Source: Acidobacteriota bacterium (GTDB lineage Bacteria; Acidobacteriota; Terriglobia; Bryobacterales; Bryobacteraceae). From it: a DNA stretch of 64,000 bases. Under the pieces are notes generated by a model that saw only the letters and a program-made list of their open reading frames with translations, was not told the DNA's origin and searched no databases. The stretch spans positions 39,195 through 103,194 of the forward strand of contig JAKOTR010000043.1 of NCBI GenBank assembly GCA_029776225.1, written 5' to 3'. This document shows, in pieces, positions 1,757-15,743 of the stretch; position 1 is the stretch's first letter; every line of letters begins with the position of its first letter. The translations under genes were made by a program, and so were the position numbers.

Positions 1757-3058
1757 ATGGCTCTCACAAGAAGGCAATTATTACTTGCCGCGGCGGGCGC
1801 GCCGCTCGTGGCGCAGGCGAACCGGCCGCCAAACATCGTACTGATCATCGTGGACGAGCTGGGCGCCTGGATGCTCGGCTGCTATGGCAACCGCGAGATA
1901 CGGACGCCGAATATCGACCTGCTGGCGCGCGGCGGCACGCGGTTCCATACGCACATAGCCTCGGCGCCGGCGGGATCGCCCAACAGGGCAACGCTGTTCA
2001 CCGGACGCACTCCCCGGCAGCATGGCATCCGCGATTTCCTCACCCCCGAGCCGATCGAAGATCCGCCGCAGGGCCAGGCCGCGCCGCCGCCGTCGTTTCA
2101 AGAGGAGATCATGATTTCGGACGTGCTTGCCCGCGCCGGATACAACTGCGGTTATGCCGGCAAGTGGGACATGGGCGCCGAAGACAAGCCGCAGCACGGC
2201 TTCAAGCACTGGGCCACGCAGTTGAAAACGGCGGATGCGGTCACCGCGAGCGCGCTCGAGTTTCTCGACGCGCAGAAAGCCGGCCAGCCTTTCTTCCTCA
2301 CCGTGAGCTACCCCGGCCCGCAAGCGCCGTACGAGGGACTGGCCGCGAAATATTACGAGATGTACGCCGGCGTCAAATTCGAGACGATCGGCTGGGATCC
2401 CGCCGCGCCGAACGCCTCGCGGGGCAGGGAGATGCTGGGCGACATTGTCGGCAACATCCGCAAGTGCGCCGCCGCGCTCACCGCCATCGACGACCAGATT
2501 CCGCCGCTGATGAAGAGACTCAACGAGCGCGGCCTGCGCGACGACACGCTGATCGTTCTGACTGGCGCGAGCGGGAACCTGCTCGGACGGCACGGATTGT
2601 GGGGTAGCGGGCACGCCTCCAATCCCGTCAACATGTACGAAGAGTCGACGGCCACGCCGATGATCTGGAACTGGCGCGGAAGGTCGCCGGTGGAGGCTGC
2701 GCGGCCGGAACTGGTCGGCTCGTGCGATTTTCTGCCCACGATTTGCGAAGCGGTGGGAGCGCCCGTGCCGCAGCGCAACCTCCCGGGACGCAGCTATCTG
2801 ACCGCCGTCCTCGGCCAGCAGTTCCCCAGGAGCCAACCCTGGCGCAACCTGGTGTTCAGCGAACTGCGCAACACGCTGATGGCGCGCAACAACCGCTACA
2901 AGCTCGTTCTGAGGAACCAGGGGGAAGGGCCGAACGAGCTTTACGACCTCCGCGCGGACCCAGGGGAGAAAGTAAATCAGTATTCCAATCCATCCTTTGT
3001 CAGCGTCCGCGACCAGCTTGCTGCTGAACTCGATCGCTGGCAAAAAGAGTTTAAATAG
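1757..3058 (+). CDS. Sulfatase (alkaline phosphatase superfamily) family protein, Tat signal; formylglycine position is Gly
   Basis: MALTRRQLLLAAAGAPLVAQA Tat signal. NIVLIIVDELG N-term. Signature region reads AGSPNRATLFTGR, against canonical C/S-x-P-x-R-x-x-L-x-TGR. Confidence 0.8.
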   Translation: MALTRRQLLLAAAGAPLVAQANRPPNIVLIIVDELGAWMLGCYGNREIRTPNIDLLARGGTRFHTHIASAPAGSPNRATLFTGRTPRQHGIRDFLTPEPIEDPPQGQAAPPPSFQEEIMISDVLARAGYNCGYAGKWDMGAEDKPQHGFKHWATQLKTADAVTASALEFLDAQKAGQPFFLTVSYPGPQAPYEGLAAKYYEMYAGVKFETIGWDPAAPNASRGREMLGDIVGNIRKCAAALTAIDDQIPPLMKRLNERGLRDDTLIVLTGASGNLLGRHGLWGSGHASNPVNMYEESTATPMIWNWRGRSPVEAARPELVGSCDFLPTICEAVGAPVPQRNLPGRSYLTAVLGQQFPRSQPWRNLVFSELRNTLMARNNRYKLVLRNQGEGPNELYDLRADPGEKVNQYSNPSFVSVRDQLAAELDRWQKEFK

Positions 3059-3159
3059 TTTAAATAGAGTTTGCAGTAAGGTTTCTCGTACGGGACTTCG
3101 GCTTCGGCGGACGCTGGAGGCAAGAAGAGTTTCAGTAAAGTTCAAAGTAAGGTTTCGTC

Positions 3160-3843
3160 GTGTCAGCGCCGCAAAAAATGGAAACGTTCCGGCGCGTGCC
3201 GCTGTTCGCCGGGCTTACAGAAGAGGAACTGGCGTCTCTTGCCAGACGCGCGGTGGAAAAACGCTACTCCGCCGGCGAGGTGCTCTTCTATGAAGGCGAG
3301 CCGTGCACCGGGTTTTTCCTGATCGGGCAGGGATCGGTCAAGATCTACAAGACCTCGGGTTCCGGGCGCGAGATCATGCTGGCGATCGATACCGCCCCGT
3401 CCAGCGTGGCGGAGGTGCCGCTGTTTGACGGTGGTCCTTATCCGGCCACGGTGAGCGCGGTGAATGACGTGGTCGCCTACGTGGTGAGCAAGCAGGATTT
3501 CCATGCCGTGTGCCTGCAAAATCCCAACCTGCCTCTCAAAGTGCTGGCGGTGGTGGGGCGAAGGCTCAGGCACCTGGTGCGGATCGTGGAAAGCGTGACC
3601 TTCGGCAGCGTCCGCCAGAGGCTCGCGAGCGCGCTGCTGGAATTCGGCAACCAGGCCGGCTCGGACGTGTTCTCCCTCCCCGTTACCCACGAGGAACTCG
3701 CTTTGCGCCTCGGCACGGTGCGCGAAGTGGTCTCCCGAAATCTCAGCCGCTTTCAGGCCGAAGGCCTGCTGCGCGTCCAGCGGCGCGAGATCCATTTGCT
3801 GGACCGAGAGGGATTGCTCCGCGAGGCGGAAACCGAGTTGTAA
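3160..3843 (+). CDS. Crp/Fnr family transcriptional regulator (GTG start; alternative ATG at 3178)
   Basis: cNMP-binding-like N domain (LFAGLTEEELASLA...GEVLFYEGEP) and C-terminal HTH (THEELALRLGTVREVVSRNLSRFQAEGLL). Confidence 0.85.
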   Translation: MSAPQKMETFRRVPLFAGLTEEELASLARRAVEKRYSAGEVLFYEGEPCTGFFLIGQGSVKIYKTSGSGREIMLAIDTAPSSVAEVPLFDGGPYPATVSAVNDVVAYVVSKQDFHAVCLQNPNLPLKVLAVVGRRLRHLVRIVESVTFGSVRQRLASALLEFGNQAGSDVFSLPVTHEELALRLGTVREVVSRNLSRFQAEGLLRVQRREIHLLDREGLLREAETEL

Positions 3844-3867
3844 ACCTTTTTTTCGCCCGGAATTCCA

Positions 3868-3881
3868 GTGACTTACGTCAC
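3868..3881. promoter_or_regulatory. Perfect dyad GTGAC-N4-GTCAC (FNR-box geometry), centred ~42 bp upstream of the hemerythrin ATG
   Basis: Sequence gtgacttacgtcac read directly. Same 14-bp dyad type recurs three times at 9059-9265. Confidence 0.5.
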
Positions 3882-3916
3882 TTCACTTGCCTGTATACGC
3901 GGGTTAAGCTGGAAAT

Positions 3917-4471
3917 ATGTACACCGTGGAACGACTGCTGCGCGTCTCACGGGGGGAAGAGAGCGCACGCACCACCATCGACTACCCTTTGGAGCATCTC
4001 GTGGCATGTCACCGGCGTATCGAGGAGCGCCTGGAGATGCTGGAACGCGCCGGCGCCCACCTTGCCGGACGCCCCGACGACGCCCTTGAGGCTATCGATG
4101 CCGCTTTTCGCTACTTCGACTCCAGCGGCGTGCTTCACACGGCCGACGAGGAGCAGAGCCTGTTTCCGCGGCTCCGCCCGCGCCTGCTGCCCGACGAGCT
4201 GGAGATGGTCGCCCGGCTCGACCGGGAGCACCGCGAAGCCGAGGCCCTTTACGCCGAGCTCAAGGCCGCCGTGGCGCGCCTTCGAAAAGATCCTCACAAC
4301 GAGCAGCTCGGAGAGGAGTACCGGAATCTTGTGAAGCGGTTCACCGAGCTGTACAACTCGCACATCAGGCTCGAGGACAACGAGCTCGTCCGCGTGGCGA
4401 AGCGAGACCTCACCCGCCAGGAACTGGACGCGATTTCCCGGGAAATGAAGCAGCGGCGGAATTTGTTCTGA
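3917..4471 (+). CDS. Hemerythrin-like (HHE cation-binding) domain protein
   Basis: H/E-rich helical signature (HLVACHRRIEERLE...DREHREAEALY...HIRLEDNEL). Confidence 0.7.
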   Translation: MYTVERLLRVSRGEESARTTIDYPLEHLVACHRRIEERLEMLERAGAHLAGRPDDALEAIDAAFRYFDSSGVLHTADEEQSLFPRLRPRLLPDELEMVARLDREHREAEALYAELKAAVARLRKDPHNEQLGEEYRNLVKRFTELYNSHIRLEDNELVRVAKRDLTRQELDAISREMKQRRNLF

Positions 4472-4527
4472 AATTCCGAGGCGCTCGTCCGCTGGAACCC
4501 GTTCCGCTGTGGCAGACTGGTCTGGTT

Positions 4528-4959
4528 ATGAGAGTGCTCGTCGCTTTGGGGTTCCTGTTCGGACTTTTCTCGGGCATTGCCCGCGCGCAGGCCAGCCTGG
4601 AATTGCAGGCATGCAACGCCAGAGCCCGCTCCCAGGCCGAATTGAATAAGTGCGCCGAGGAAGAACTCGGGCGCGCCGACGAAGCGATGAACCGCGCGTA
4701 CGAAGCCCTTCTGGCGAAGGCCGCGAAGCACCCGGTGGCTGTGAAGAAAATCAAGGCCGCGCAGCAGGCCTGGCTTGCGTTTCGCGAAGCTCACCTGGAA
4801 GCTGTTTTCCCCGCCGAAGACAAGCTGGCCGCTTACGGAGCAGTCCAGCCGATGTGCGCCGCGCTGCTGCGCGCCGAGCTTGCCTGGGAGCGCGCCCAGG
4901 TCCTGGAATCGATGGCGAATCCCGAGGAAGGCGATGTGTGCTGCGGGCAGCGCTACTAG
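4528..4959 (+). CDS. DUF1311 / LprI-like lysozyme-inhibitor family secreted protein
   Basis: Signal peptide. Conserved Cys pattern and AQQAWLAFREAHLEA motif typical of DUF1311. Confidence 0.6.
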   Translation: MRVLVALGFLFGLFSGIARAQASLELQACNARARSQAELNKCAEEELGRADEAMNRAYEALLAKAAKHPVAVKKIKAAQQAWLAFREAHLEAVFPAEDKLAAYGAVQPMCAALLRAELAWERAQVLESMANPEEGDVCCGQRY

Positions 4960-5847
4960 CTACTCGGGCTCGGGGTGGACGATGACGTCGGCGCCGGGCG
5001 CCACACTCTGAATCGCCCGCTCGATGTCCTCGGTCAATGCGTGCGCCGCGCGAAGCGACTGATCGCCGTCAACGAGCACGTGGACATCGACAAACAACCG
5101 GGGGCCGGAATAGCGAAGCCGCACGTTGTGGCAGTCCTTCACCCCTTCCACGGACTGGGCCGCCCCGGTGATCTTCTCCTCCAGGCCGGCCGGCGCGGTG
5201 TCGATCAGCGATGCAATGCTGCGCACCCCGAGCCTCACGCTGATCAGGATCACGATTCCCGCAACGATGATGGCGGCCACGGCGTCCGCCTGGCGCAGCG
5301 CTCCCAAGGCCGGCACCCGCTCCGAAATCAACACGCAGATGAGGCCGAGGATCACCACCGCCGAGCTCCAGATGTCCGTGCTGAAATGCAGCGCGTCAGC
5401 TTCGAGCGCCTGGCTGTTGTACTTGCGGGCCGCCCGGTAGAGCACACGGGAGCGCGAGGCGTCGACGATGATCGAGGTGATCATAACGGCAAACGACCAG
5501 AACGTCACCTCGATTTCGATTCTCTGTTCGATGAGGCGGCCTGCGGCGCCGTAGATAATCCACACGCACGTCGCCAGCAGCAGCATGGTCTCGAACAGGG
5601 CCGAGAGGTTCTCTACTTTTCCGTGGCCGTAGGTGTGCGAGCGGTCGGCGGGCTTACCCGAGATCCGCACCGAAACCCAGGTCATCAGGGCGGCTACAAG
5701 GTCCAGCCCGGAGTGCGCCGCCTCAGCGAGAATTCCAAGGCTGCCTGTGGCGGCGCCCACCAGGGCTTTGAAGGTAGTTAAACCGATGGCCGCCAGCACC
5801 GAACTCGCGGCGGCCCACCGTTTTTCTTTTTCCGCCCGTTCTGTCAA
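4960..5847 (-). CDS. Cation diffusion facilitator (CDF) family transporter; TTG start overlapping the upstream gene's stop
   Basis: CDF signatures (SLGILAEAAHSGLDLVAAL, HTYGHGKVENL). C-terminal cytoplasmic domain. Four-base overlap with the upstream gene implies co-transcription. Confidence 0.8.
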   Translation of the reverse strand: MTERAEKEKRWAAASSVLAAIGLTTFKALVGAATGSLGILAEAAHSGLDLVAALMTWVSVRISGKPADRSHTYGHGKVENLSALFETMLLLATCVWIIYGAAGRLIEQRIEIEVTFWSFAVMITSIIVDASRSRVLYRAARKYNSQALEADALHFSTDIWSSAVVILGLICVLISERVPALGALRQADAVAAIIVAGIVILISVRLGVRSIASLIDTAPAGLEEKITGAAQSVEGVKDCHNVRLRYSGPRLFVDVHVLVDGDQSLRAAHALTEDIERAIQSVAPGADVIVHPEPE

Positions 5848-8171
5848 GTCGAAAGGCCGATTTGGCAGAGGTGTTTCTCAAGCACCGTCTTTTCTTGGGC
5901 GAGATAGGCGCGGTTCCTGCGCGTGAGCTCGTCGAAATCAACCTTGTGAGCGTCGAACTCCGGTCCGTCCACGCAGGCGAACTTAACCTCCCCGCCTACG
6001 GTAACGCGGCAGCCGCCGCACATGCCAGTACCGTCCACCATGATTGGATTCAGGCTGGCAAAAGTAGGCACACCCCATTCGCGGGTGAGTTCGGCCGCAG
6101 CGCGCATCATCGGGATTGGCCCGATGACGTGGACAACACCGGGAGTGATTCCGCTCTGCTCCTTCCACGCGCGCATAAGCTGAACTACATTCCCATGGAA
6201 CGCGCCCGATCCGTCGTCAGTGGCCCAATGGACTTCATCGGCCACGGAGCGCAATTCTTCATCCAGGATAATATGGGCCGTTGACCGCGCTCCGCAGAGC
6301 GCAATCACGCGGTTGCCGGCCTCATGGAACGCCCGCACGACGGGCAGCAGTTCGGCCGTCCCCACACCGCCGGCGACGCAGAGCGCCGTGCCGACTTTTT
6401 CGATGGTGGCGGGAAGGCCCAGCGGGCCGAGCAGGTCCGCGATGTAATCGCCTGCCTCCAGCGACAGCGTCTGCCGCGAGGTTTTTCCGAGCGCCTGAAC
6501 AACGAGCCTGATGGTGCCCGCCGCGGGGTCGCCGTCCACCAGCGTGAGCGGGATGCGCTCGCTCTCGGGAGTGGGCCGCAGAATGATGAACTGCCCGGCC
6601 TTCCAGTGCCTGGCGATTTCGGGCGCCTCGATTTCCAGGCTGGCGATCTCAGGCGTGAGCAGGCGCTTGGAAACTACGCGGTTGCCGCGGCCATTGGTGG
6701 CGGTGGGTATCCCGGAAACGGCAACGCTCTTTGCTTTCGGGCGCAGTTCGCGGTCGATAGCCTCGGCGGCCGCCCGGCCGTCGCGCATCGCCAGGATCAC
6801 GGTAGCCCCGCCGCGCACAACATCCCCTCCGGCGTAGACGTTCGGCAGGCTGGTCCTGCCGGCCTCGTCGATGACAATCTTACCGCGTTTCGTAATCAGT
6901 GTCGGGGTGGCGCGCTGGACGGTGGGGTTCGGGCTCTGGCCGATTGCCATCACCACGGTATCCACCGGCATGCGGTACTCGGAACCGGGTATCGGAACGG
7001 GCCTGGGGCGCCCGGACTCGTCCGGCTCTCCAAGCTGCATGCGCTGGACTTCCATTTCCTTCAACACGCCGTTTTCGTCCCCGAACAGCCGGACGGGCAC
7101 GGCCAGAAACTCGAACTGGACGCCCTCCTCCTCGGCGTGCTCGATCTCTTCGAGGCGGGCGCGCAGCTCGGCCCGGCCGCGGCGGAACATGATGATGCTT
7201 TCACTGCCCAACCGCTTGGCCCAGCGCGCGGCGTCCATCGCGGAATTGCCGCCGCCGATGACCACGGTCCGCTTGCCCACGAGGACCGGCGTGTCACTCG
7301 CCGGGAATTCGTAGGCCTGCATGAGGTTGATCCGGGTCAAATACTCGTTGGCGGTATACACGCCCACCAGGTTCTCTCCCGGAATGCCCATCAGGTGGGG
7401 CAGGCCGGCGCCGGTGCCGATGAACACGGCGGAGTAGCCCCACTCGAAAAGCTCATCGATCGTGGCGGTCTTGCCCACGATGAAGTTGGTGCGGAACTCG
7501 ACTCCAAGCGCGCGAAGCCGCTCGATCTCCTCGTCGATAATCTGGCGCGGCAAGCGAAATGGCGGGATGCCGTAGGCCAGGACGCCGCCCAGCCTGTGCA
7601 GCGCCTCGAAAACCGTGACGCCGTAGCCTTTGCGCACAAGGTCGAAGGCGGCGATCAGCGAGGCGGGTCCGCTGCCGACCAGCGCTACTTTCAGGCCGTT
7701 GGGCGGTTCCACAGGGGGAAGCCGCCGGTCGCTCGAACTCCGCTGATAATCCGCCAGGAAACGTTCGAGCGAGCCGATCGCCACCGGCTCCAGCTTCGTT
7801 TTCGGATTGCCGAGCAGGCAAGCCTTCTCGCAGAACAACTCGTGCTGGCAAACGCGTCCACAGATGCCCGGAAATGGTGTGTACTTGCTGATGGTTTCAA
7901 AAGCGCCACCGAAGTCGCCCTCCACCATGCGGGCGATCACACTCTTGATATCGATGTGGAGCGGGCAGGCTTCCACGCATTTCGGATCCCTGCAATTCAG
8001 GCAGCGGAGCGCTTCGGTCCAAGCCTGCTCCTGGTCGAACCCCAACGCCACTTCTTCACACGTAGTGGTCCGCTTCACCGGATCCAGCAACGGAAGTTGC
8101 TGGCGCGGAATTTTGGGGTTGCGCTTGCGTTTTACCGTTGGCACAGGGGTCACGTCAGCTTTTTCGGGCAT
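5844..8171 (-). CDS. Fused NfnB/GltD-like (N-term) and NfnA/SudB/PyrK-like (C-term) oxidoreductase, single 775-aa polypeptide
   Basis: N-term: Cys clusters (CEEVALGF..CLNCRDPKCVEACP; CGRVCQHELFCEKAC) and two Rossmann folds (VALVGSGPASLIAAFDL; VVIGGGNSAMDAA) as in GltD/NfnB. C-term: FNR-like FAD/NAD module ending in a 2Fe-2S motif (MCGGCRVTVGGEVKFACVDGPEF). Confidence 0.8.
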   Translation of the reverse strand: MPEKADVTPVPTVKRKRNPKIPRQQLPLLDPVKRTTTCEEVALGFDQEQAWTEALRCLNCRDPKCVEACPLHIDIKSVIARMVEGDFGGAFETISKYTPFPGICGRVCQHELFCEKACLLGNPKTKLEPVAIGSLERFLADYQRSSSDRRLPPVEPPNGLKVALVGSGPASLIAAFDLVRKGYGVTVFEALHRLGGVLAYGIPPFRLPRQIIDEEIERLRALGVEFRTNFIVGKTATIDELFEWGYSAVFIGTGAGLPHLMGIPGENLVGVYTANEYLTRINLMQAYEFPASDTPVLVGKRTVVIGGGNSAMDAARWAKRLGSESIIMFRRGRAELRARLEEIEHAEEEGVQFEFLAVPVRLFGDENGVLKEMEVQRMQLGEPDESGRPRPVPIPGSEYRMPVDTVVMAIGQSPNPTVQRATPTLITKRGKIVIDEAGRTSLPNVYAGGDVVRGGATVILAMRDGRAAAEAIDRELRPKAKSVAVSGIPTATNGRGNRVVSKRLLTPEIASLEIEAPEIARHWKAGQFIILRPTPESERIPLTLVDGDPAAGTIRLVVQALGKTSRQTLSLEAGDYIADLLGPLGLPATIEKVGTALCVAGGVGTAELLPVVRAFHEAGNRVIALCGARSTAHIILDEELRSVADEVHWATDDGSGAFHGNVVQLMRAWKEQSGITPGVVHVIGPIPMMRAAAELTREWGVPTFASLNPIMVDGTGMCGGCRVTVGGEVKFACVDGPEFDAHKVDFDELTRRNRAYLAQEKTVLEKHLCQIGLST

Positions 8172-8309
8172 CTTCTCTATGGGTGTCCTCTACAAAATGG
8201 ATGAAAGCAATTTCAATTCCCATTGTGGCGCACTAAGAGAAATCAGATCAAATTGCCCTTTTTGTGCGCCTGGAGGACACCCGATTGCGTGATATGACCC
8301 GCTCGCCGC

Positions 8310-9008
8310 TTAGAGTTCCCTCAGTGCCCTGGGGAACAGCACGTTGTTTTCCAGGTGAATGTGCTGGTGAAGGTCCGCTTCCAGTTCCTGCAGTCCCGTG
8401 TAGAGGGCGCGGAAGGTCGCGCAGGCATCGGGCGGAAGCGTATAGTCGCTGGTGATTTTGCGCATCTGTGCAAGCGCTTCCCCGGCGCTGTCGTGCTCAT
8501 GGATCATCATCCGGATCGGATTTTCGATATGGCCGAAGGGCATCGGCTCGGGCGGGCGCCCCTCCTGGCGCGCGCGCTCGGCTGACTCGATGGCGGGGAA
8601 CAGGATGAACTCTTCCTTCCTGAGGTGAGTCAGAAGCTCGTTTTGCAGCCCCTCAAAAACTTCTTGGAGCCTCTTCAGCATCTCCCCGTGCGCCGCACTA
8701 TGAGCCTCGATGACGCGGGCGAGCCTGGCATCGAGCGCGGGCAGTTCCGCTTTCAGATATTCGTGGTGTGTCGAGACGATGTGGTCGGTCAGTTCGCAGA
8801 GCGCGGCTTTGGTCCAGTCCTTCTCCGGCGCGCGGGCGGCAGCCGCCTGCACTTCGGCCAGAACGGCTTCGGGTGAGAGGCCTCGCTCGCGGCAGACTTC
8901 CTCGAGCGGCCGGTTCCCGCCGCAGCAGTAATCGATCTTGTACTTCTCAAAGACCCGCACGGATGCCGGCTGTTCAGCCGCAATCTCCCCAACGGTTTGC
9001 CGATTCAT
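8310..9008 (-). CDS. ric: Iron-sulfur cluster repair di-iron protein (RIC / ScdA / YtfE family)
   Basis: N-terminal DYCCGG motif and hemerythrin-like His/Glu repeats (HHEYLKAELP...HEHDSAGE...HQHIHLENNVLFP). Confidence 0.85.
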   Translation of the reverse strand: MNRQTVGEIAAEQPASVRVFEKYKIDYCCGGNRPLEEVCRERGLSPEAVLAEVQAAAARAPEKDWTKAALCELTDHIVSTHHEYLKAELPALDARLARVIEAHSAAHGEMLKRLQEVFEGLQNELLTHLRKEEFILFPAIESAERARQEGRPPEPMPFGHIENPIRMMIHEHDSAGEALAQMRKITSDYTLPPDACATFRALYTGLQELEADLHQHIHLENNVLFPRALREL

Positions 9009-9058
9009 TTACATTCCACCTCCATCCCCATGCTAGGGCGCAAGGGCCGGCGCGCTCA

Positions 9059-9072
9059 GTGACGGCGGTCAC
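9059..9072. promoter_or_regulatory. Perfect GTGAC-N4-GTCAC dyad, ~57 bp upstream of the ric start
   Basis: Sequence gtgacggcggtcac read directly. Confidence 0.45.
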
Positions 9073-9175
9073 AAGGGCGCAAGGGGGCAGCGTGCTCAGG
9101 GACGGGGTCACAAGGCGCAACGCGCGGCGGGGCGCGGTAACAAGGGTCACAAGGGCGCAAAGGACAGCGGGCGCG

Positions 9176-9189
9176 GTGACGAGTGTCAC
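9176..9189. promoter_or_regulatory. Perfect GTGAC-N4-GTCAC dyad
   Basis: Sequence gtgacgagtgtcac read directly. Confidence 0.45.
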
Positions 9190-9251
9190 AAGACCGCAAG
9201 GGATGGCGGGCTTGCTGAGATGGGGCACAAGGCGCCAAGCATGTCGGCGCG

Positions 9252-9265
9252 GTGACGAGTGTCAC
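9252..9265. promoter_or_regulatory. Perfect GTGAC-N4-GTCAC dyad centred 41.5 bp upstream of the radical SAM ATG (9300)
   Basis: Sequence gtgacgagtgtcac read directly. Spacing to the ATG matches the hemerythrin site, suggesting class-II-like activation and short or absent leaders. Confidence 0.5.
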
Positions 9266-9299
9266 AGAAAAGTCCGGCGTTCGGGATTACCCTCAAAGC

Positions 9300-10379
9300 A
9301 TGAGAGACTTCTCGCAGGCGCCCTTTCTGGTGATCTGGGAGGTGACTCAGGCCTGCGATTTGGCCTGCGTGCACTGCCGCGCCTCGGCCGAACCCCGCCG
9401 GCATCCGCTCGAACTCACCACCGAAGAAGGGTTTCGATTGCTAGATGAAGTCCGGGAGTTCGGCGATCCGCTGGTGGTTTTTACGGGCGGCGACCCGCTG
9501 AAGCGCCCGGACCTGTTCGAACTTCTGAAATACAGCGTGGACCTGGGGTTGCGGACCACCGTGACGCCGAGCGCCACGCCGCTGCTGACCGCCGAAGCCA
9601 TCGAGCGGTTTCGCGACTGCGGCGTTTCGCGCATGGCCGTCAGCGTCGACGGACCGGACGCGGCCACGCACGACGATTTCCGCCGCGTGCCGGGGTCCTT
9701 TGACCGCACCATGTTCGCGCTGGAGCACGCCCGGCGCATCGGGCTTGAAACCCAGGTCAACACCACCGTGACCCGGCTGAACAGGGACACGCTGCCGCGG
9801 ATAGCCAATCTGGTCGCCGCGTCGGGCGCCCGTCTATGGAGTGTCTTTTTCCTGGTTGCGACCGGCCGCGCCCTCCGCACCGATGACCTGGACGCGGACG
9901 CCTACGAGGAAGTCTTTGCCTACCTCTACGAACTGTCGAAGACCGCGCCTTTCGACATCAAGACCACCGAAGCGCAGCATTACCGCCGCTACGTCGCGCA
10001 ACAGAGGAAGCGTGAGGGCGGCGCCGCAGGTTCTCCCAAGGCGCCGGCCGGCCCCATCCAGCGCCAGGCGGGCATCAACGACGGCAAGGGGTTTGTCTTC
10101 ATTTCCCACACGGGGGAGATCTATCCCAGCGGCTTTCTGCCCGTGTCAGGGGGAAACGTCCGGCAGGATTCGCTGGTTGAGGTCTACCGGACGTCCCCGC
10201 TGTTTGTGGCGTTACGGAACCCGGACCGGCTGCGGGGCAAGTGCAGAATCTGCGAATACAGGAACTTGTGCGGGGGATCGCGGTCGCGGGCTTACGCGCT
10301 GACGGGGGACTGGCTGGCGGAGGACCCCAAGTGCGCGTACGAGCCGCGCGACAGGCATGTTGCACTTGTTAACAGTTAG
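9300..10379 (+). CDS. Radical SAM / SPASM-domain protein (AhbD/NirJ/PqqE-like architecture), function unknown
   Basis: CDLACVHC (CX3CX2C) after VIWEVTQA. GGDPL SAM-binding motif. C-terminal Cys-rich SPASM region (CRICEYRNLCGGSRSRAYALTG...CAYEP). Start placed at ATG 9300 (the ORF's 9252 start lies inside the dyad site). Confidence 0.8.
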   Translation: MRDFSQAPFLVIWEVTQACDLACVHCRASAEPRRHPLELTTEEGFRLLDEVREFGDPLVVFTGGDPLKRPDLFELLKYSVDLGLRTTVTPSATPLLTAEAIERFRDCGVSRMAVSVDGPDAATHDDFRRVPGSFDRTMFALEHARRIGLETQVNTTVTRLNRDTLPRIANLVAASGARLWSVFFLVATGRALRTDDLDADAYEEVFAYLYELSKTAPFDIKTTEAQHYRRYVAQQRKREGGAAGSPKAPAGPIQRQAGINDGKGFVFISHTGEIYPSGFLPVSGGNVRQDSLVEVYRTSPLFVALRNPDRLRGKCRICEYRNLCGGSRSRAYALTGDWLAEDPKCAYEPRDRHVALVNS

Positions 10380-10614
10380 GATTGTTGCGCTTTGCGACTT
10401 TTGACCCATGGGTGAGGTATTTTGCCCCACTCATTGCGGAGAATCGCACCCGTTCCTCCGAATCCTCATTTGAGGCTCCTCTGCATCCCCATTGAAAAAT
10501 AAAAAGATTCCATACTTTCCGATCTGTATTAAGATGCATGAATGTTGGAGGTACGCCTGCTCGGAATCGCAGCGCACTATTGTGAGTTGGCTAGGTTATC
10601 TGGAGGATGCGTTT

Positions 10615-12657
10615 ATGCGCTCACGGTTTTCTTTTTCGATCGCGGTCAAACTCGTGCTTGTCCTCGCCTTCCTGGCGGGTTCCGCAATTCTGTTAAGTAG
10701 TTCCGATAAGCCCGCGTTCACCGCGATGGACAAGGCGTTCTACGCCGACGCCAATGCTATCAACTTCGTCCGGCCGGGCCTGGACATCAAAATCGAGTCG
10801 GCCAGCATTGAAGCCGACGGCACGATCAAGGCCCGGATCAAGGTGACGGACCCCAAGGGCCTGCCGCTGGACCTCGATGGGGTTACGACGCCGGGAACCA
10901 TTTCGACGCGTTTCGTGATCGGTGTCATTCCGAATGGGCAGAAGCAGTACATCTCCTACATCACCCGGCAGGTGACCAGCACGATCACGAATCAGACCGC
11001 CACCCAGGCCACTTACGATTCCGGCGGCACATTCACCAAAGAGGCCGACGGGGTCTACACATACACCTTCGGGGCGAAAGCGCCGGCCAATTTTGACCGC
11101 AGCGCGACGCACAGCATCGGCGTATGGGCGGCCCGCGACCTGAGCGAGTTCGATCTGGATGCCGTTGCGAATTACGACTCCGACGTGTTCCACTTCGTTC
11201 CCAACGGCAGCCCGGTGACGGTGACGCGCGACGTAATCCGCACCCAGAGCTGCAACAAGTGCCACGATCCGCTGTCGGCGCACGACGAACGGCAGGGCAT
11301 TGAACTGTGCAATATCTGCCACAACCCCCAGAGCAGCGATCCCGACACCGGCAACACAATCGACATGGTTGTGATGACCCACAAGATCCACATGGGCAAG
11401 GATCTGCCGAGTGTGAAGGCGGGCGGCAAGTATCAGCTCATTGGCTACCGCAACACGGTGTACGACTATTCCACTGTGGGCTTCCCGGCCGATGCCCGGC
11501 GCTGCACCTTCTGCCACGAGCAGAACACTGGCGCGGCGCAGGCTACCGCTTATCTGAAGCCGAGCCGCGTGGCCTGCGGCTCCTGCCACGACAACGTGAA
11601 CTTCGCCACGGGCGAGAACCACGTGAACCTTCCGCAGCTCAGCGATAACCTGTGCGCGAATTGCCACATCCCGCAGGGCGAGCTGGACTTCGACGCCTCG
11701 GTTATCGGCGCGCACACGATTCCGGAGTTCTCGAACGAGCTGCCCGGCACGGTCTTTGAGATCGTCGACGTTCGCGACGGCGAGGCGGGCAAGAATCCGA
11801 CCGTAACCTTTACGGTGAAGGATAAGGCCGGCAACCCGGTCACGGACATTTCCGGGATGCGCCTATCGCTCGTTCTGGCCGGGCCGACGACGGACTACTC
11901 CAGCTACGTTTCGGAGACCGCCAACGGCGCGCAGGGCTCGGGCGGAACCTATACCTACACCTTCAAGCAGGCGATCCCGGCTGATGCCAAGGGCACCTTC
12001 GCGGTGGGCATCGAAGGATACCGCACTGTAACCCTGCTCGAGGGGACCACGCGGCAGATGAGCGTTCGCGATGCCGGCATGAACAAGGTGTATTACTTCT
12101 CCGTGGACGGCTCGCCGGTCACTCCGCGCCGGCAGGTGGTGAGCCTGGAGAAGTGCAACTCCTGCCATGCGTCGCTCTCCGCGCACGGCGGCAATCGCAA
12201 CACGATCGAACAGTGCGTGCTTTGCCACAACCCGCTTAAGACCGACGCCGCCGCCCGGCCCGCCGAAGAGAAGCCGGACATGACCATCCAGATGGCCTAC
12301 ATGATCCACCGGATCCACACCGGCGAGGACAGCCCGTCCGAAATCGTGATCTACGGGCACAACAGCACCCGTTACGACTTCGGCCACGTCCGGTATCCGG
12401 GTGACAGGCGCAATTGCAACGCTTGCCACGTCAACGGTTCCGAACAGCTTCCGCTTTCGGAAAGCCTCCTGAACGTCAACAACCCGCGGGGGGTGTTGAA
12501 CCCGATGGGACCGGCTACGGCGGCCTGCACCGGTTGCCACACCAGCATAGCGGCGGCTTCGCACGCTTTGTCGAACACGACCCAGCTTGGGGAAGCCTGC
12601 GCCGCGTGCCACAAGACCGGCAACGAATTCAGCGTGCCGAAGGTACACGCACGTTAG
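10615..12657 (+). CDS. Decahaem c-type cytochrome, OmcA/MtrC-like (outer-membrane/extracellular type)
   Basis: 10 CXXCH motifs arranged 5 + (~150-aa haem-free beta-rich domain) + 5. Signal peptide MRSRFSFSIAVKLVLVLAFLAGSA. GGAGGA RBS 7 nt upstream of ATG 10615. The ORF-track 10492 start is a TTG extension into AT-rich promoter DNA. Confidence 0.75.
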   Translation: MRSRFSFSIAVKLVLVLAFLAGSAILLSSSDKPAFTAMDKAFYADANAINFVRPGLDIKIESASIEADGTIKARIKVTDPKGLPLDLDGVTTPGTISTRFVIGVIPNGQKQYISYITRQVTSTITNQTATQATYDSGGTFTKEADGVYTYTFGAKAPANFDRSATHSIGVWAARDLSEFDLDAVANYDSDVFHFVPNGSPVTVTRDVIRTQSCNKCHDPLSAHDERQGIELCNICHNPQSSDPDTGNTIDMVVMTHKIHMGKDLPSVKAGGKYQLIGYRNTVYDYSTVGFPADARRCTFCHEQNTGAAQATAYLKPSRVACGSCHDNVNFATGENHVNLPQLSDNLCANCHIPQGELDFDASVIGAHTIPEFSNELPGTVFEIVDVRDGEAGKNPTVTFTVKDKAGNPVTDISGMRLSLVLAGPTTDYSSYVSETANGAQGSGGTYTYTFKQAIPADAKGTFAVGIEGYRTVTLLEGTTRQMSVRDAGMNKVYYFSVDGSPVTPRRQVVSLEKCNSCHASLSAHGGNRNTIEQCVLCHNPLKTDAAARPAEEKPDMTIQMAYMIHRIHTGEDSPSEIVIYGHNSTRYDFGHVRYPGDRRNCNACHVNGSEQLPLSESLLNVNNPRGVLNPMGPATAACTGCHTSIAAASHALSNTTQLGEACAACHKTGNEFSVPKVHAR

Positions 12658-13739: not shown

Positions 13740-15743
13740 ATGAGAGCACTTCTGATTATCCTGATCGCGCTTCCGCTTGCGGCCCAGGCGCCGGTCGGTT
13801 CGCAGGCGCCCGTACCGCCGCCGCCGAAGGACGCCATTCCTCTGGTGCAGCAGCCGGACCTCACCGCTCCGCCCGACGAGCCTTTCCTCACCGGCAACCT
13901 GGATGTCGGCTACCGCTGGGTCAGTGGCGTGGGCGGCGACTTCAACACCTATCGCAGCGTCGTGAACCTCGGCGACGGACCCAGGCTGTTCAACCTCGAC
14001 GCGGTCATCGTGCCGCCGGCGTGGAAGTTTGCCGACCGGATCCAGGTGAACGCGAACAACTGGGGCGGGGATCCGTATAACTTCGCCCGGGTGAGCGCGC
14101 GCAAGCTGGGTGTCTACGACTTCTACTGGAACTACCGCAACATCGCGTACTTCAATTTCCTGCCGTCGTTCGCCAATCCGAACCTGGAGCGCGGCATTTT
14201 TCTCAACCAGCGGGGCTTCGACACCTTCAAGCGGATCAACGACGCCGAGCTGGTGCTGAGGCCGGGGCGGAGCATCACTCCGTACGTCGCCTACAGCCGC
14301 AGCGGCGACCGCGGCACGGGCACCACGAACATTGTTCTGGAAAGCAACGAATACACCGTGCCGGACCGGATCGATAACAACGTCAATATCTACCGCGCCG
14401 GCAGCAGGTTCCAGTTCAACCGGTACAACCTGACGCTGGAAGCCGGCGGGATCTCCTACGACAACGACCAGCGCGTTGAGATCGGAGATACGCCGAATTT
14501 CGGCAACCGCACGACTCCCTTCTTGGGGCAGACTCTGTTTCTGACGCAGGGTTTGCAGAGCTACAACGTCAGCGGCAGCGGCGTCTTCACGCGGGGGATG
14601 TTTGCCGCGAACCCGGTGAATTGGGCCGATGTGTTCGGGCAATTCGAGTTCAGCCAACTGAAGAGCACGACCCGCTTCAGCGAGAACGCCGCCGGGAACC
14701 TGGTGAACCTGGCGGCGGTATCGTTCTTCAACGAACTGATCCGGACGGCGGACTCGCGCGTCAAGCAGCCGCACCCGTCGGGCCAGATCGGGGCCGAATT
14801 GCGGCCCACGCGATGGCTGCGCATCCTGGAGTTCGCCTCCACCAACCGCCTGCACAACGCCGGTACAGAACTGCTGATTGACCGCATGCTGTTTGCGGGC
14901 CTTCCGCCGACGGAAGAGGTCGTGAACCTGGCCGAGCGGCTGGAAGTGACCTACAACCAGCAGCAGGTGAACTTCCTGTTCGACGTCACGCCGAGGCTCA
15001 TGCTTCGAGCCGGGCACCGGTACGTCTGGGGAGAAGCGGAGGCGCCCGCCGCCCTTATCCTGGGGGGCGTGGGAACGGAATCGGCCAAACTGCGCAGGAA
15101 CGTGGCGCTGGCCGGAGCCACCTGGCGCAGCCCGCGCAAGCTGCGCGTCACGGTGGAGTACGAAGGCTCGCCGGGCGACCGTTCGTTCTTCCGCACCAGT
15201 GTGAACGAGTACCAGAAGGGGCGCGTGATGGCGCGCTATCAGGCGCTGCCCTCGCTGGCGCTAACCTTCAATTTCGGAATCTTCGACAACCACAACCCGG
15301 CGCCGAGCCAGTACGATTTCCAGAGCCGGGACGCCTCGCTTTCCGCCTACTGGGCGCCCCAGGGAGGCAAGCGGGTGAGTTTCATTGCCGAATACGCGCG
15401 GGCAACCGTGAGCTCGGATATCAGTTTCGTGGTGCCGAACACGCTTCAGGAGGCGCTCTCGGTTTATCGGGAACGTTCGCACACGGGACTGCTGCTTGCG
15501 GAATTCCCGCTTCCGGGGCGCGGGGTGTTCCAGCCCAGGCTGGATGTCGGGGGATCGCTGTTCTATTCGACGGGCACGCGTCCCTCGCGGTACTACCAGC
15601 CGTTCGGCAGGTTCCGCCTGCCCCTCGGCGAGCACGTCGCCTGGTACGGCGAGTGGCGGTGGTACGGCTTCACCCAGCCGACGTTCCTGTTTGAGGGATT
15701 CCGCTCCAACCAGGTGATCACCGGCCTGCGGTTCTTCATGTAG
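13740..15743 (+). CDS. Putative outer-membrane beta-barrel porin, MtrB/PioB-like (~667 aa)
   Basis: Signal peptide MRALLIILIALPLAAQA. No Cys. Rich in Y/F/N/G/S/T/R with aromatic C-terminus (GLRFFM). Sits directly downstream of two decahaem genes in mtrC-A-B order. Confidence 0.55.
   Translation: MRALLIILIALPLAAQAPVGSQAPVPPPPKDAIPLVQQPDLTAPPDEPFLTGNLDVGYRWVSGVGGDFNTYRSVVNLGDGPRLFNLDAVIVPPAWKFADRIQVNANNWGGDPYNFARVSARKLGVYDFYWNYRNIAYFNFLPSFANPNLERGIFLNQRGFDTFKRINDAELVLRPGRSITPYVAYSRSGDRGTGTTNIVLESNEYTVPDRIDNNVNIYRAGSRFQFNRYNLTLEAGGISYDNDQRVEIGDTPNFGNRTTPFLGQTLFLTQGLQSYNVSGSGVFTRGMFAANPVNWADVFGQFEFSQLKSTTRFSENAAGNLVNLAAVSFFNELIRTADSRVKQPHPSGQIGAELRPTRWLRILEFASTNRLHNAGTELLIDRMLFAGLPPTEEVVNLAERLEVTYNQQQVNFLFDVTPRLMLRAGHRYVWGEAEAPAALILGGVGTESAKLRRNVALAGATWRSPRKLRVTVEYEGSPGDRSFFRTSVNEYQKGRVMARYQALPSLALTFNFGIFDNHNPAPSQYDFQSRDASLSAYWAPQGGKRVSFIAEYARATVSSDISFVVPNTLQEALSVYRERSHTGLLLAEFPLPGRGVFQPRLDVGGSLFYSTGTRPSRYYQPFGRFRLPLGEHVAWYGEWRWYGFTQPTFLFEGFRSNQVITGLRFFM

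Follow-up and report, generated by a model that had tools for sequence, protein, structure and literature searches.

A 64-kb stretch of DNA (the window) from a metagenome-assembled genome (MAG) of the Bryobacteraceae (Acidobacteriota) carries a gene for a Crp/Fnr-family regulator, here called REG, together with four exact copies of a palindromic dyad, GTGAC-N4-GTCAC, standing before genes for a hemerythrin-like protein, a RIC/YtfE/ScdA di-iron Fe-S repair protein and a TIGR04053 radical SAM/SPASM protein (Table 1). Between the hemerythrin and RIC genes lie those of an LprI-domain protein, a CDF transporter and a fusion of GltD-like and PyrK-like modules (NfnBA-like), while the RIC and radical SAM genes diverge from a 291-bp spacer that holds a tandem array. 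The identities proposed in an initial annotation of this DNA (Crp/Fnr, hemerythrin, RIC, radical SAM, NfnBA fusion and CDF) were confirmed by domain and profile matches. In particular, RIC carries both PF04405 (ScdA_N) and PF01814, which places it in the RIC/YtfE/ScdA family, and the radical SAM protein, with 359 aa in three external gene calls, is related to AhbD/NirJ. The longest open reading frame of REG begins at GTG 3160, and external gene callers give the 221-aa form; the start codons in the window match the calls in three external assemblies.

Table 1. Genes and regulatory features around REG (positions in the window)
Feature	Coordinates	Strand	Remarks
Crp/Fnr-family regulator REG	3178..3843	+	cNMP_binding and HTH_Crp_2 domains; 221 aa from ATG 3178
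Putative hemerythrin operator dyad GTGACTTACGTCAC	3868..3881	.	exact
Predicted hemerythrin -10, TAAGCT	3905..3910	+	23 nt past dyad; predicted +1 = A of ATG 3917
Hemerythrin-like (HHE) protein	3917..4471	+	184 aa; PF01814; same length in external gene calls; predicted direct target
LprI-domain protein	4528..4959	+	PF07007; 56 nt past hemerythrin gene; no dyad of its own
CDF transporter	4960..5847	-	4-nt overlap with NfnBA-like fusion gene
GltD-like + PyrK-like (NfnBA-like) fusion	5844..8171	-	domain/profile matches
RIC/YtfE/ScdA di-iron Fe-S repair protein	8310..9008	-	TIGR03652, 251.5 bits (cutoff 204.7); predicted direct target
Predicted RIC -10, TAGCAT	9030..9035	-	23 nt past dyad; ~15-nt leader with GGAGG; ATG 9008
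Tandem array of six 37-39-bp units	9035..9266	.	each unit AGGGCGCAAGG-N13-dyad-A; Tandem Repeats Finder (TRF) and repeat search
Unit U1	9035-9073
U1 dyad, predicted RIC class II operator	9059..9072	.	exact; centre ~42.5 nt upstream of predicted +1 (~9023)
Unit U2	9074-9112
Unit U3	9113-9151
U3 dyad GTAACAAGGGTCAC (GTAAC...)	9137..9150	.	one mismatch; inner copy; no -10 at the right spacing
Unit U4	9152-9190
U4 dyad	9176..9189	.	exact; inner copy; no -10 at the right spacing
Unit U5	9191-9229
Unit U6	9230-9266
U6 dyad, predicted radical SAM class II operator	9252..9265	.	exact
Predicted radical SAM -10, TACCCT	9288..9293	+	22 nt past dyad; predicted +1 = A of ATG 9300
TIGR04053 radical SAM/SPASM protein	9300..10379	+	NCBIfam, 475.6 bits (cutoff 395); predicted direct target

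The dyad in the window

The four exact dyads lie where the initial annotation had placed them, with no further copy in the 64 kb, and all four are intergenic, before genes, as it had also stated. Their chance expectation, which had been put at well under one, is 0.07 per window, and a count of four was reached in none of 100 dinucleotide-preserving shuffles. The distances to the start codons held as well, since the hemerythrin dyad is centred at 3874.5, that is 42.5 nt before ATG 3917 (about 42 bp had been given), and the dyad nearest to the radical SAM gene at 9258.5, 41.5 nt before ATG 9300. These copies represent two independent occurrences rather than four, because the three sites between 9009 and 9299 are paralogous copies within the tandem array. 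When up to two mismatches are allowed, the window shows no enrichment (26 sites found against 24.9 expected), and the near-perfect dyad is the only informative form. Of the FNR/CRP-family geometry originally attributed to the dyad, the CRP part stands, with a half-site of the type TGTGA-N6-TCACA; the motif is not an FNR box.

Comparative analysis of the predicted regulon

The association between dyad and regulator was followed in a scan of one genome per species, which covered 80 loci with REG orthologues at 60-95% identity (1.09 Mb in total, nearly all from Bryobacterales/Solibacteraceae MAGs) and the genes within 8 kb of REG. These loci contain 31 exact dyads, whereas 59 control palindromes of the same composition and 5-N4-5 design have a median count of 1 and reach at most 7. 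This excess favours the link between dyad and REG drawn in the initial annotation. With the window included, 28 of 35 exact dyads (80%) are intergenic, compared with some 14% of non-coding DNA by crude gene calls, so that in this material the motif does not behave as a common sequence lacking promoter bias, the outcome which the annotation had itself named as adverse. Frequently, a dyad is found 30-60 nt past the REG stop codon.

When a dyad with at most one mismatch was sought within 250 nt upstream of the genes near REG, it was present for all 11 copies of a NapH/MauN-like membrane ferredoxin, for 8 of 9 RIC genes, for 7 of 10 genes of the quinol nitric oxide (NO) reductase qNorB (NorB_cytochrome_c-like plus COX1), for 5 of 7 TIGR04053 radical SAM genes and for both NarK-like transporters (2/2), while random 280-nt windows contained one in 2% of cases. 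The same test gave one of eight for the MtrC-type cytochrome and none of three for the CDF transporter. Targets found once or a few times were an NnrS-DUF1858 protein, an Mrp/ApbC Fe-S carrier (in locus L010), an HAO/HDH-like multihaem cytochrome, hemerythrin and the REG gene itself. Three of the families in this list, dnrN (RIC), nnrS and nor, are core members of the nitrogen-oxide-responsive regulons surveyed in PMC1274295, where Acidobacteria were not included. In the literature, no paper naming TIGR04053 was found, and none on an acidobacterial NO regulator.

Several loci deserve separate mention. In L080 (JAXLQN010000019.1, 3549-16440), five exact dyads within 16.6 kb precede genes for RIC, NnrS-DUF1858, an HAO/HDH-like multihaem cytochrome, a fused E1 dehydrogenase and small open reading frames, and a second Crp paralogue (40% identity) is encoded at the contig end. 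The qNorB promoters often have two dyads, 34 or 23 bp apart, of which the proximal one ends in GTCAT, not GTCAC (L017 9319/9353, L018 9307/9341, L046 9818/9841 and L053 9819/9842). The sister genome L001 (JBLNCW010000086.1) is titled 'Rhodospirillales bacterium', yet it is syntenic with the window and its proteins are 88-96% identical, so this MAG is probably mis-binned or mislabelled.

Recognition helix and effector domain of REG

REG, the only Crp homologue within the window, belongs by its PF00027 (1.2e-22) and PF13545 (2e-19) domains to the Crp/Fnr superfamily, whose members join an N-terminal beta-roll of the cNMP-binding type to a long dimerisation helix and a C-terminal winged HTH. Its AlphaFold model (mean pLDDT 88) has its best Foldseek matches in GlxR, Thermus CRP, Mycobacterium tuberculosis (Mtb) CRP and Clr (E ~1e-18), a result which confirms the fold and does not separate CRP, DNR, HcpR and FNR as nearest neighbour; likewise, the score of REG reaches no equivalog model of NCBIfam. 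Sequence identity amounts to 26-30% with the actinobacterial, Thermus and rhizobial CRPs, which are the nearest solved relatives, 25% with E. coli CRP, 27-29% with DNR (the sequence compared is identical to PDB 3dkw), 21% with FNR and 20% with P. gingivalis HcpR.

In the recognition helix, GTVREVVSRNL, residues R182/E183/R187 align to R180/E181/R185 of E. coli CRP, and the pattern R-E-x-x-S-R is kept in all 75 helices recovered from the 80 loci (none was recovered from the other five). The pair R180/E181 goes with half-sites of the TGTGA type (PMC1274295), and 35 promoter-linked sites yield the consensus TGTGAC-N4-GTCACAG (equivalent to TGTGA-N6-TCACA), with G, and not the T of the FNR box, at the position that discriminates FNR from CRP operators according to the same source. 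A CRP-type helix found together with a CRP-type motif gives independent support for REG reading the dyad, which is very probably the operator of the adjacent regulator.

The effector domain is of another kind, corresponding neither to a cAMP site nor to an FNR Fe-S site. In E. coli CRP, cAMP is contacted by Glu72, Arg82, Ser83, Thr127 and Ser128. The residues of REG at the Arg82/Ser83 position are Tyr88/Pro89, a pair that is invariant among 19 REG orthologues, and Thr127/Ser128 are replaced by Leu/Val; the corresponding Arg/Thr pair of Mtb CRP is likewise replaced, and REG does not look like a cAMP receptor. FNR ligates its [4Fe-4S] cluster through N-terminal cysteines and a central one, and its box is TTGAT-N4-ATCAA. 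REG has two cysteines, neither of them invariant among the 19 orthologues, and a family without a conserved cysteine should have no FNR-type [4Fe-4S] cluster. As regards haem, His139 and His187 of DNR, which we take to be its haem-ligand histidines, align to Arg131 and to another Arg of REG, and the neighbouring His is variable. In HcpR the haem ligand is Met68 (PMC12750200), which in a manual, low-confidence alignment of the flap falls at the invariant Lys58 of REG.

Promoter architecture

The dyads are followed at a fixed distance by a second element. Of 74 site-gene orientations, 24 have a TAnnnT hexamer beginning 22 nt past the dyad and 6 have it at 23 nt, and the hexamer is nearly absent at the other offsets from 0 to 49. 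With this hexamer as the -10 element, the dyad centre lies 41.5-42.5 nt upstream of the predicted +1, so that the spacing is that of class II Crp/Fnr promoters. The predicted leader, counted to the first in-frame start codon, measures 0-4 nt in 15 of these 30 promoters and 8-26 nt in the others, typically with GGAGG. For the hemerythrin and radical SAM genes, the predicted -10 box ends 6 nt before ATG 3917 and ATG 9300, respectively. The fixed spacing and the many very short leaders support the class II activation with leaderless transcripts that the initial annotation had suggested, as far as can be judged from sequence. Moreover, genes predicted to be leaderless, with TANNNT some 12 nt ahead of the start codon, were reported for all three Acidobacteria genomes examined in PMC3160421, and a leaderless prediction is therefore expected for this phylum.

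Two other roles for the dyad were rejected. It does not provide a -35 box, as its proximal GTCACA is 21 nt from the -10 element, which is too far; and it is not an intrinsic terminator of REG, as no T-run follows it and a conserved -10 element lies downstream. Promoters with no usable -35 element should need an activator. A generic promoter and terminator scan misses the dyad promoters, which lack a -35 box.

The tandem dyad array

The units of the array stand head to tail in the spacer; TRF gives a period of 39, with 5.4 copies and 68% matches, and the repeat spacings are 78, 39 and 39 nt. Besides the dyads listed in Table 1, degenerate copies are found in U2 (one mismatch and a 3-nt spacer) and in U5 (three mismatches). 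Three assemblies from different samples (two from ENA, one from JGI) carry the array without a single base difference, and consequently it is not an assembly artefact. It is no CRISPR-like array, a candidate that was rejected because no spacers separate its contiguous units, nor a known RNA, since Rfam and tRNA scans of the window returned nothing.

Relatives with a single operator indicate how it may have arisen. In L001, where REG is 95% identical, the gene order is the same and the hemerythrin dyad GTGACTTACGTCAC is unchanged, the RIC/radical SAM spacer measures 98 bp and holds one unit with one dyad, whose centre is 57.5 nt from the start codon of RIC and 41.5 nt from that of the radical SAM gene. 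L005 and L011, which are more distant relatives, have one dyad as well; the two start codons of L005 are 84 nt apart, and its dyad is 42.5 nt from one and 41.5 nt from the other. The gap between both genes is about 83 bp in L005 (5557-5639) and L011 (~9510-9592), with the dyad in its middle and TAnnnT 22 nt away on each side, and little or no leader is predicted for either gene. The single dyad in L001, L005 and L011 points to one shared bidirectional operator as the ancestral state, and there is little doubt that the three exact dyads of the spacer descend from one ancestral operator by tandem duplication.

TRF detected no other dyad-bearing tandem repeat across the 80 related loci. A metagenome scan for copy-number variants with the 24-mer GATTACCCTCAAAGCATGAGAGAC of the radical SAM promoter gave zero matches in a collection that differs in coverage from the one in which JGI contig 3300010271 (L082, 13090-13130), which carries this exact 24-mer, was found; the unit junction GGTCACAAGGGCGCAA gave at least 119 single matches, none near a dyad, which are taken as chance matches. 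The contigs with the 95%-identity regulator P0003 stop inside the NfnBA-like gene, short of the spacer, and showed no intermediate state of the array; a look-up of the exact RIC protein of the window returned no record.

Neighbouring genes

The LprI-domain gene is possibly co-transcribed with the hemerythrin gene. On the other side of REG, between the sulfatase stop and the REG start, a stretch of about 71 bp, AT-rich for the host genome, is directly duplicated (GGCAAaAAGAGTTT...AGTAAGGTTTC, 3039-3156). The element is single-copy in the sister genomes L001 and L203, where the gap is 40 bp as against 119 bp here, and it represents a second tandem duplication in the regulatory DNA of this lineage, unrelated to the array.

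Between RIC and the NfnBA-like gene there are 138 nt, with neither a dyad nor a terminator-like hairpin, and the order REG-CDF-NfnBA(-RIC) is kept in L001, L006 and L009. The inclusion of the NfnBA-like and CDF genes in the RIC operon or regulon, as initially proposed, draws weak support from this conserved order and the terminator-free gap; against it is L006, a locus without RIC in which a dyad lies upstream of NfnBA and no -10 element stands at the class II spacing. Their membership of the regulon is plausible. In the fusion protein, the GltD-like module comes first and the PyrK-like module second, the reverse of NCBIfam PRK12778 (939 bits against a cutoff of 1103).

Downstream of the radical SAM gene, an OmcA/MtrC-family decahaem cytochrome is encoded (10492-12657), which recurs within 8 kb of REG in about 30 of the 80 loci. 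As a dyad precedes only one of the eight copies that could be tested, the gene seems to be kept in synteny without being under direct control. Upstream of the cytochrome gene, three genomes share a conserved element of about 45 nt (TTGCG..TTTTGACCCAyGGGyGAGGTrTTT; window 10385-10425, L001 ~15015-15060, L006 ~4625-4665), which may be a promoter or the site of another regulator.

Comparison with known regulators

REG has the superfamily fold in common with DNR of Pseudomonas and NnrR of alpha-proteobacteria, NO-responsive activators which like REG have no FNR cysteine cluster and share the architecture of sigma-70 activators. Moreover, DNR has a Tyr where REG has one, at the position of the cAMP-binding Arg (PNYVATAQA in DNR, GPYPATVSA in REG), and the target sets overlap in nor, nnrS and dnrN/RIC (PMC1274295). 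Nevertheless, the operators differ (TTGAT-N4-ATCAA for DNR and TTGCG-N4-CGCAA for NnrR, against TGTGAC-N4-GTCACA), the equivalents of the two DNR histidines are not conserved, actinobacterial and Thermus CRPs are at least as near to REG in sequence as DNR is, and the host phylum of REG is Acidobacteriota. The DNR/NnrR regulons centre on nor, nir, nnrS and dnrN, and no nir or nos target was seen for REG within 8 kb.

The HcpR proteins (HcpR1 of Desulfovibrio and HcpR2 of Bacteroides, Clostridia and Porphyromonas) are, like REG, predicted Crp/Fnr activators of nitrosative-stress genes. The consensus of Desulfovibrio HcpR, wTGTGAnnnnnnTCACAw, is CRP-like as well and goes together with R180/E181, and the HcpR regulons often contain ferredoxin-like, hemerythrin-like and cytochrome genes, and sometimes dnrN/norB (PMC1274295), as the predicted one of REG does. 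In contrast, HcpR controls hcp (and frdX) and usually lies next to it, and hcp, its defining target, was not seen beside any dyad of REG, none of the target clusters beside dyads being Hcp/prismane. REG does not resemble HcpR2, which recognises GTAAC-N4-GTTAC and has Pro at 181 (PMC1274295), whereas REG has the GTGAC-type motif and Glu.

NsrR of enterobacteria is a functional analogue, with a regulon of RIC (ytfE/dnrN), nnrS and sometimes norB and narK-like genes (PMC1274295), although as an Rrf2-family [Fe-S] repressor it is unlike REG in fold, motif and mechanism. The class II promoters of E. coli cAMP-CRP are a further parallel, with the same recognition residues, the same TGTGA-N6-TCACA core and sites near -41.5. 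Unlike E. coli CRP, REG has its cAMP residues replaced, many of its targets are predicted to be leaderless, and its operator occurs within a 39-bp tandem array.

Proposed mechanism and alternative explanations

In the mechanism proposed, a REG dimer would bind with its centre at about -41.5/-42.5 of sigma-70-type promoters having a TAnnnT -10 element and no usable -35 element, and would activate transcription in class II fashion. In the window it would drive leaderless transcripts of hemerythrin (possibly hemerythrin-LprI) and of the TIGR04053 radical SAM gene, and a RIC/YtfE transcript with a short leader, which may extend into the NfnBA-like and CDF genes, while in related Bryobacterales the same pair of regulator and operator would also control qNor, NnrS, the NapH-like ferredoxin, the NarK-like transporter and the Mrp/ApbC carrier. 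The physiological signal would most likely be nitric oxide or a related nitrosative stress. In an ancestor, a single operator in the middle of the spacer (83-98 bp in relatives) would have served both divergent promoters; its 39-bp unit would have been amplified to six copies in the lineage of the window, with the two outer copies keeping class II spacing, each to its own promoter, and two of the four inner copies losing the dyad. The whole chain, in which REG activates an NO-stress regulon in class II fashion and the array is an amplified bidirectional operator, is considered probable on these sequence data, and NO as the signal, which we infer from regulon content only, is held with moderate confidence.

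The signal is where another explanation has most room, as the same pair of operator and regulator could answer to oxygen limitation or to redox or iron status, in the manner of an FNR-like anaerobic switch. Hemerythrins bind oxygen; together with the NfnBA-like oxidoreductase, the CDF metal exporter and the Fe-S carriers, of which Mrp/ApbC is one, they would fit an oxygen- or iron-stress regulon equally well. The targets in the window by themselves (hemerythrin, RIC and radical SAM) do not separate NO from oxygen or redox, and the lack of an identifiable haem ligand in REG counts on the same side. What makes this explanation unlikely is that the REG family lacks conserved cysteines, and hence a sensor of the FNR type, that the targets recurring in relatives are NO-specific (qNorB, NnrS and NarK-like) and that no terminal oxidase or fermentation gene was seen among the dyad targets. 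In fact, of the NO/O2-stress regulon postulated by the initial annotation, the NO half gains support from the qNorB, NnrS, RIC and NarK-like targets of relatives, and the O2 half has found no specific support. That REG might instead be a repressor, with a dyad over the -35 region blocking RNA polymerase until release by an effector, would agree with the span of the dyad, from about -48 to -35, where polymerase could be occluded, and with the repression of ytfE by NsrR (PMC1274295). It is, however, very unlikely, given that the distance from dyad to -10 is held at 22-23 nt in 30 promoters of many species, a signature of protein-polymerase contact and not of occlusion, that the promoters should need an activator, and that the characterised NO sensors of the Crp/Fnr family, DNR, NnrR, HcpR and NssR, are activators (PMC1274295, PMC12750200). 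Finally, the dyads could be bound by another factor, or form a hairpin or terminator, with REG adjacent by coincidence. Acidobacterial genomes do hold several Crp/Fnr paralogues, such as the second copy in L080, and the RNA could fold into a 5-bp stem with a loop of 4 nt; nevertheless, the dyad co-localises with REG orthologues across 60-95% identity, the residues of the recognition helix predict exactly its half-site (PMC1274295), no T-run follows it, the fixed -10 downstream argues for promoters, and Rfam families have no match in the window, all of which leaves this explanation with hardly any probability.

A different matter, compatible with the proposed mechanism, is whether the six-unit array is adaptive and not neutral. 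It could uncouple two promoters that had competed for one dimer, or its extra operators could raise the local concentration of the regulator or sharpen the response; such an adaptive role is regarded as rather doubtful. It agrees with the exact dyads of the outer copies, each of which stands at class II spacing from its own promoter, with the inner U4 and U3, the one still exact and the other with a single mismatch, with the identity of the array in three samples and with the two dyads in some qNorB promoters of relatives. In E. coli, moreover, one CRP dimer serves two divergent promoters in 11 pairs, and separate CRP sites do so in others (PMC3105977). On the other hand, no such array was seen in the 80 related loci, the dyad is gone from two of the four inner units (U2 and U5), the inner sites stand at non-canonical distances and are not helically phased (39 bp being about 3.7 turns), and the unrelated 71-bp duplication upstream of REG suggests a tendency of this lineage to tandem duplication. 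An even broader proposal would combine an undescribed, Acidobacteria-specific clade of nitrosative-stress Crp regulators, a role in NO stress for the TIGR04053 and NapH-like families and an adaptive array. In it, CRP-type DNA reading would be joined to an effector pocket of a new kind, formed by the invariant FDGGPYPA(T/S) loop and without cAMP, Fe-S or known haem ligands, and the array would split a shared bidirectional operator into two private ones, with additional operator copies. Taken jointly, these elements make a tentative proposal, with the odds clearly against it.

Several observations weigh against an NO-responsive class II regulon as set out above. The sensor domain contains no invariant His or Cys in the orthologue alignment, and the equivalents of the DNR histidines are not conserved, so that nothing directly supports a haem-NO mechanism. 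A dyad with a -10 box occurs within 8 kb of REG in 26 of 81 loci, so that most of the regulon is unseen in most genomes, and the claim of a genome-wide promoter bias rests on about 1.15 Mb, not on whole genomes. None of hcp, hmp and nir was found among the dyad targets in the loci examined. The inner dyads of the array fall at about -117 to -235, outside the classical positions of class I and class III sites, and the dyad before NfnBA in L006 lacks its -10 element. L011 has an orphan exact dyad (8714-8727) between the convergent ends of REG and RIC, with neither a -10 element nor a target; it is probably the remnant of a lost downstream gene, as NnrS-DUF1858 holds that position in L005.

Conclusions

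The system is of an ordinary kind, being in all probability another Crp/Fnr nitrosative-stress regulon, which is new in its phylum, in its regulator clade and in several of its targets, and its unusual local feature is the six-unit operator array. What is known of Crp/Fnr mechanism is not changed by it. Nevertheless, Acidobacteria, and Bryobacterales especially, are among the most abundant soil bacteria, and to our knowledge their gene regulation is almost unstudied. The promoter grammar described, consisting of the dyad, 22 nt, TAnnnT and the start codon, could be scanned for in acidobacterial genomes and metagenomes in order to predict the response to NO stress, and such a prediction would include qNor, which is relevant to the fluxes of NO and N2O from soil. 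Furthermore, NO stress would be linked to two uncharacterised families, those of the TIGR04053 radical SAM enzyme and of the NapH-like ferredoxin, and the sister genomes offer a natural comparison of one-copy and six-copy operators at divergent promoters.

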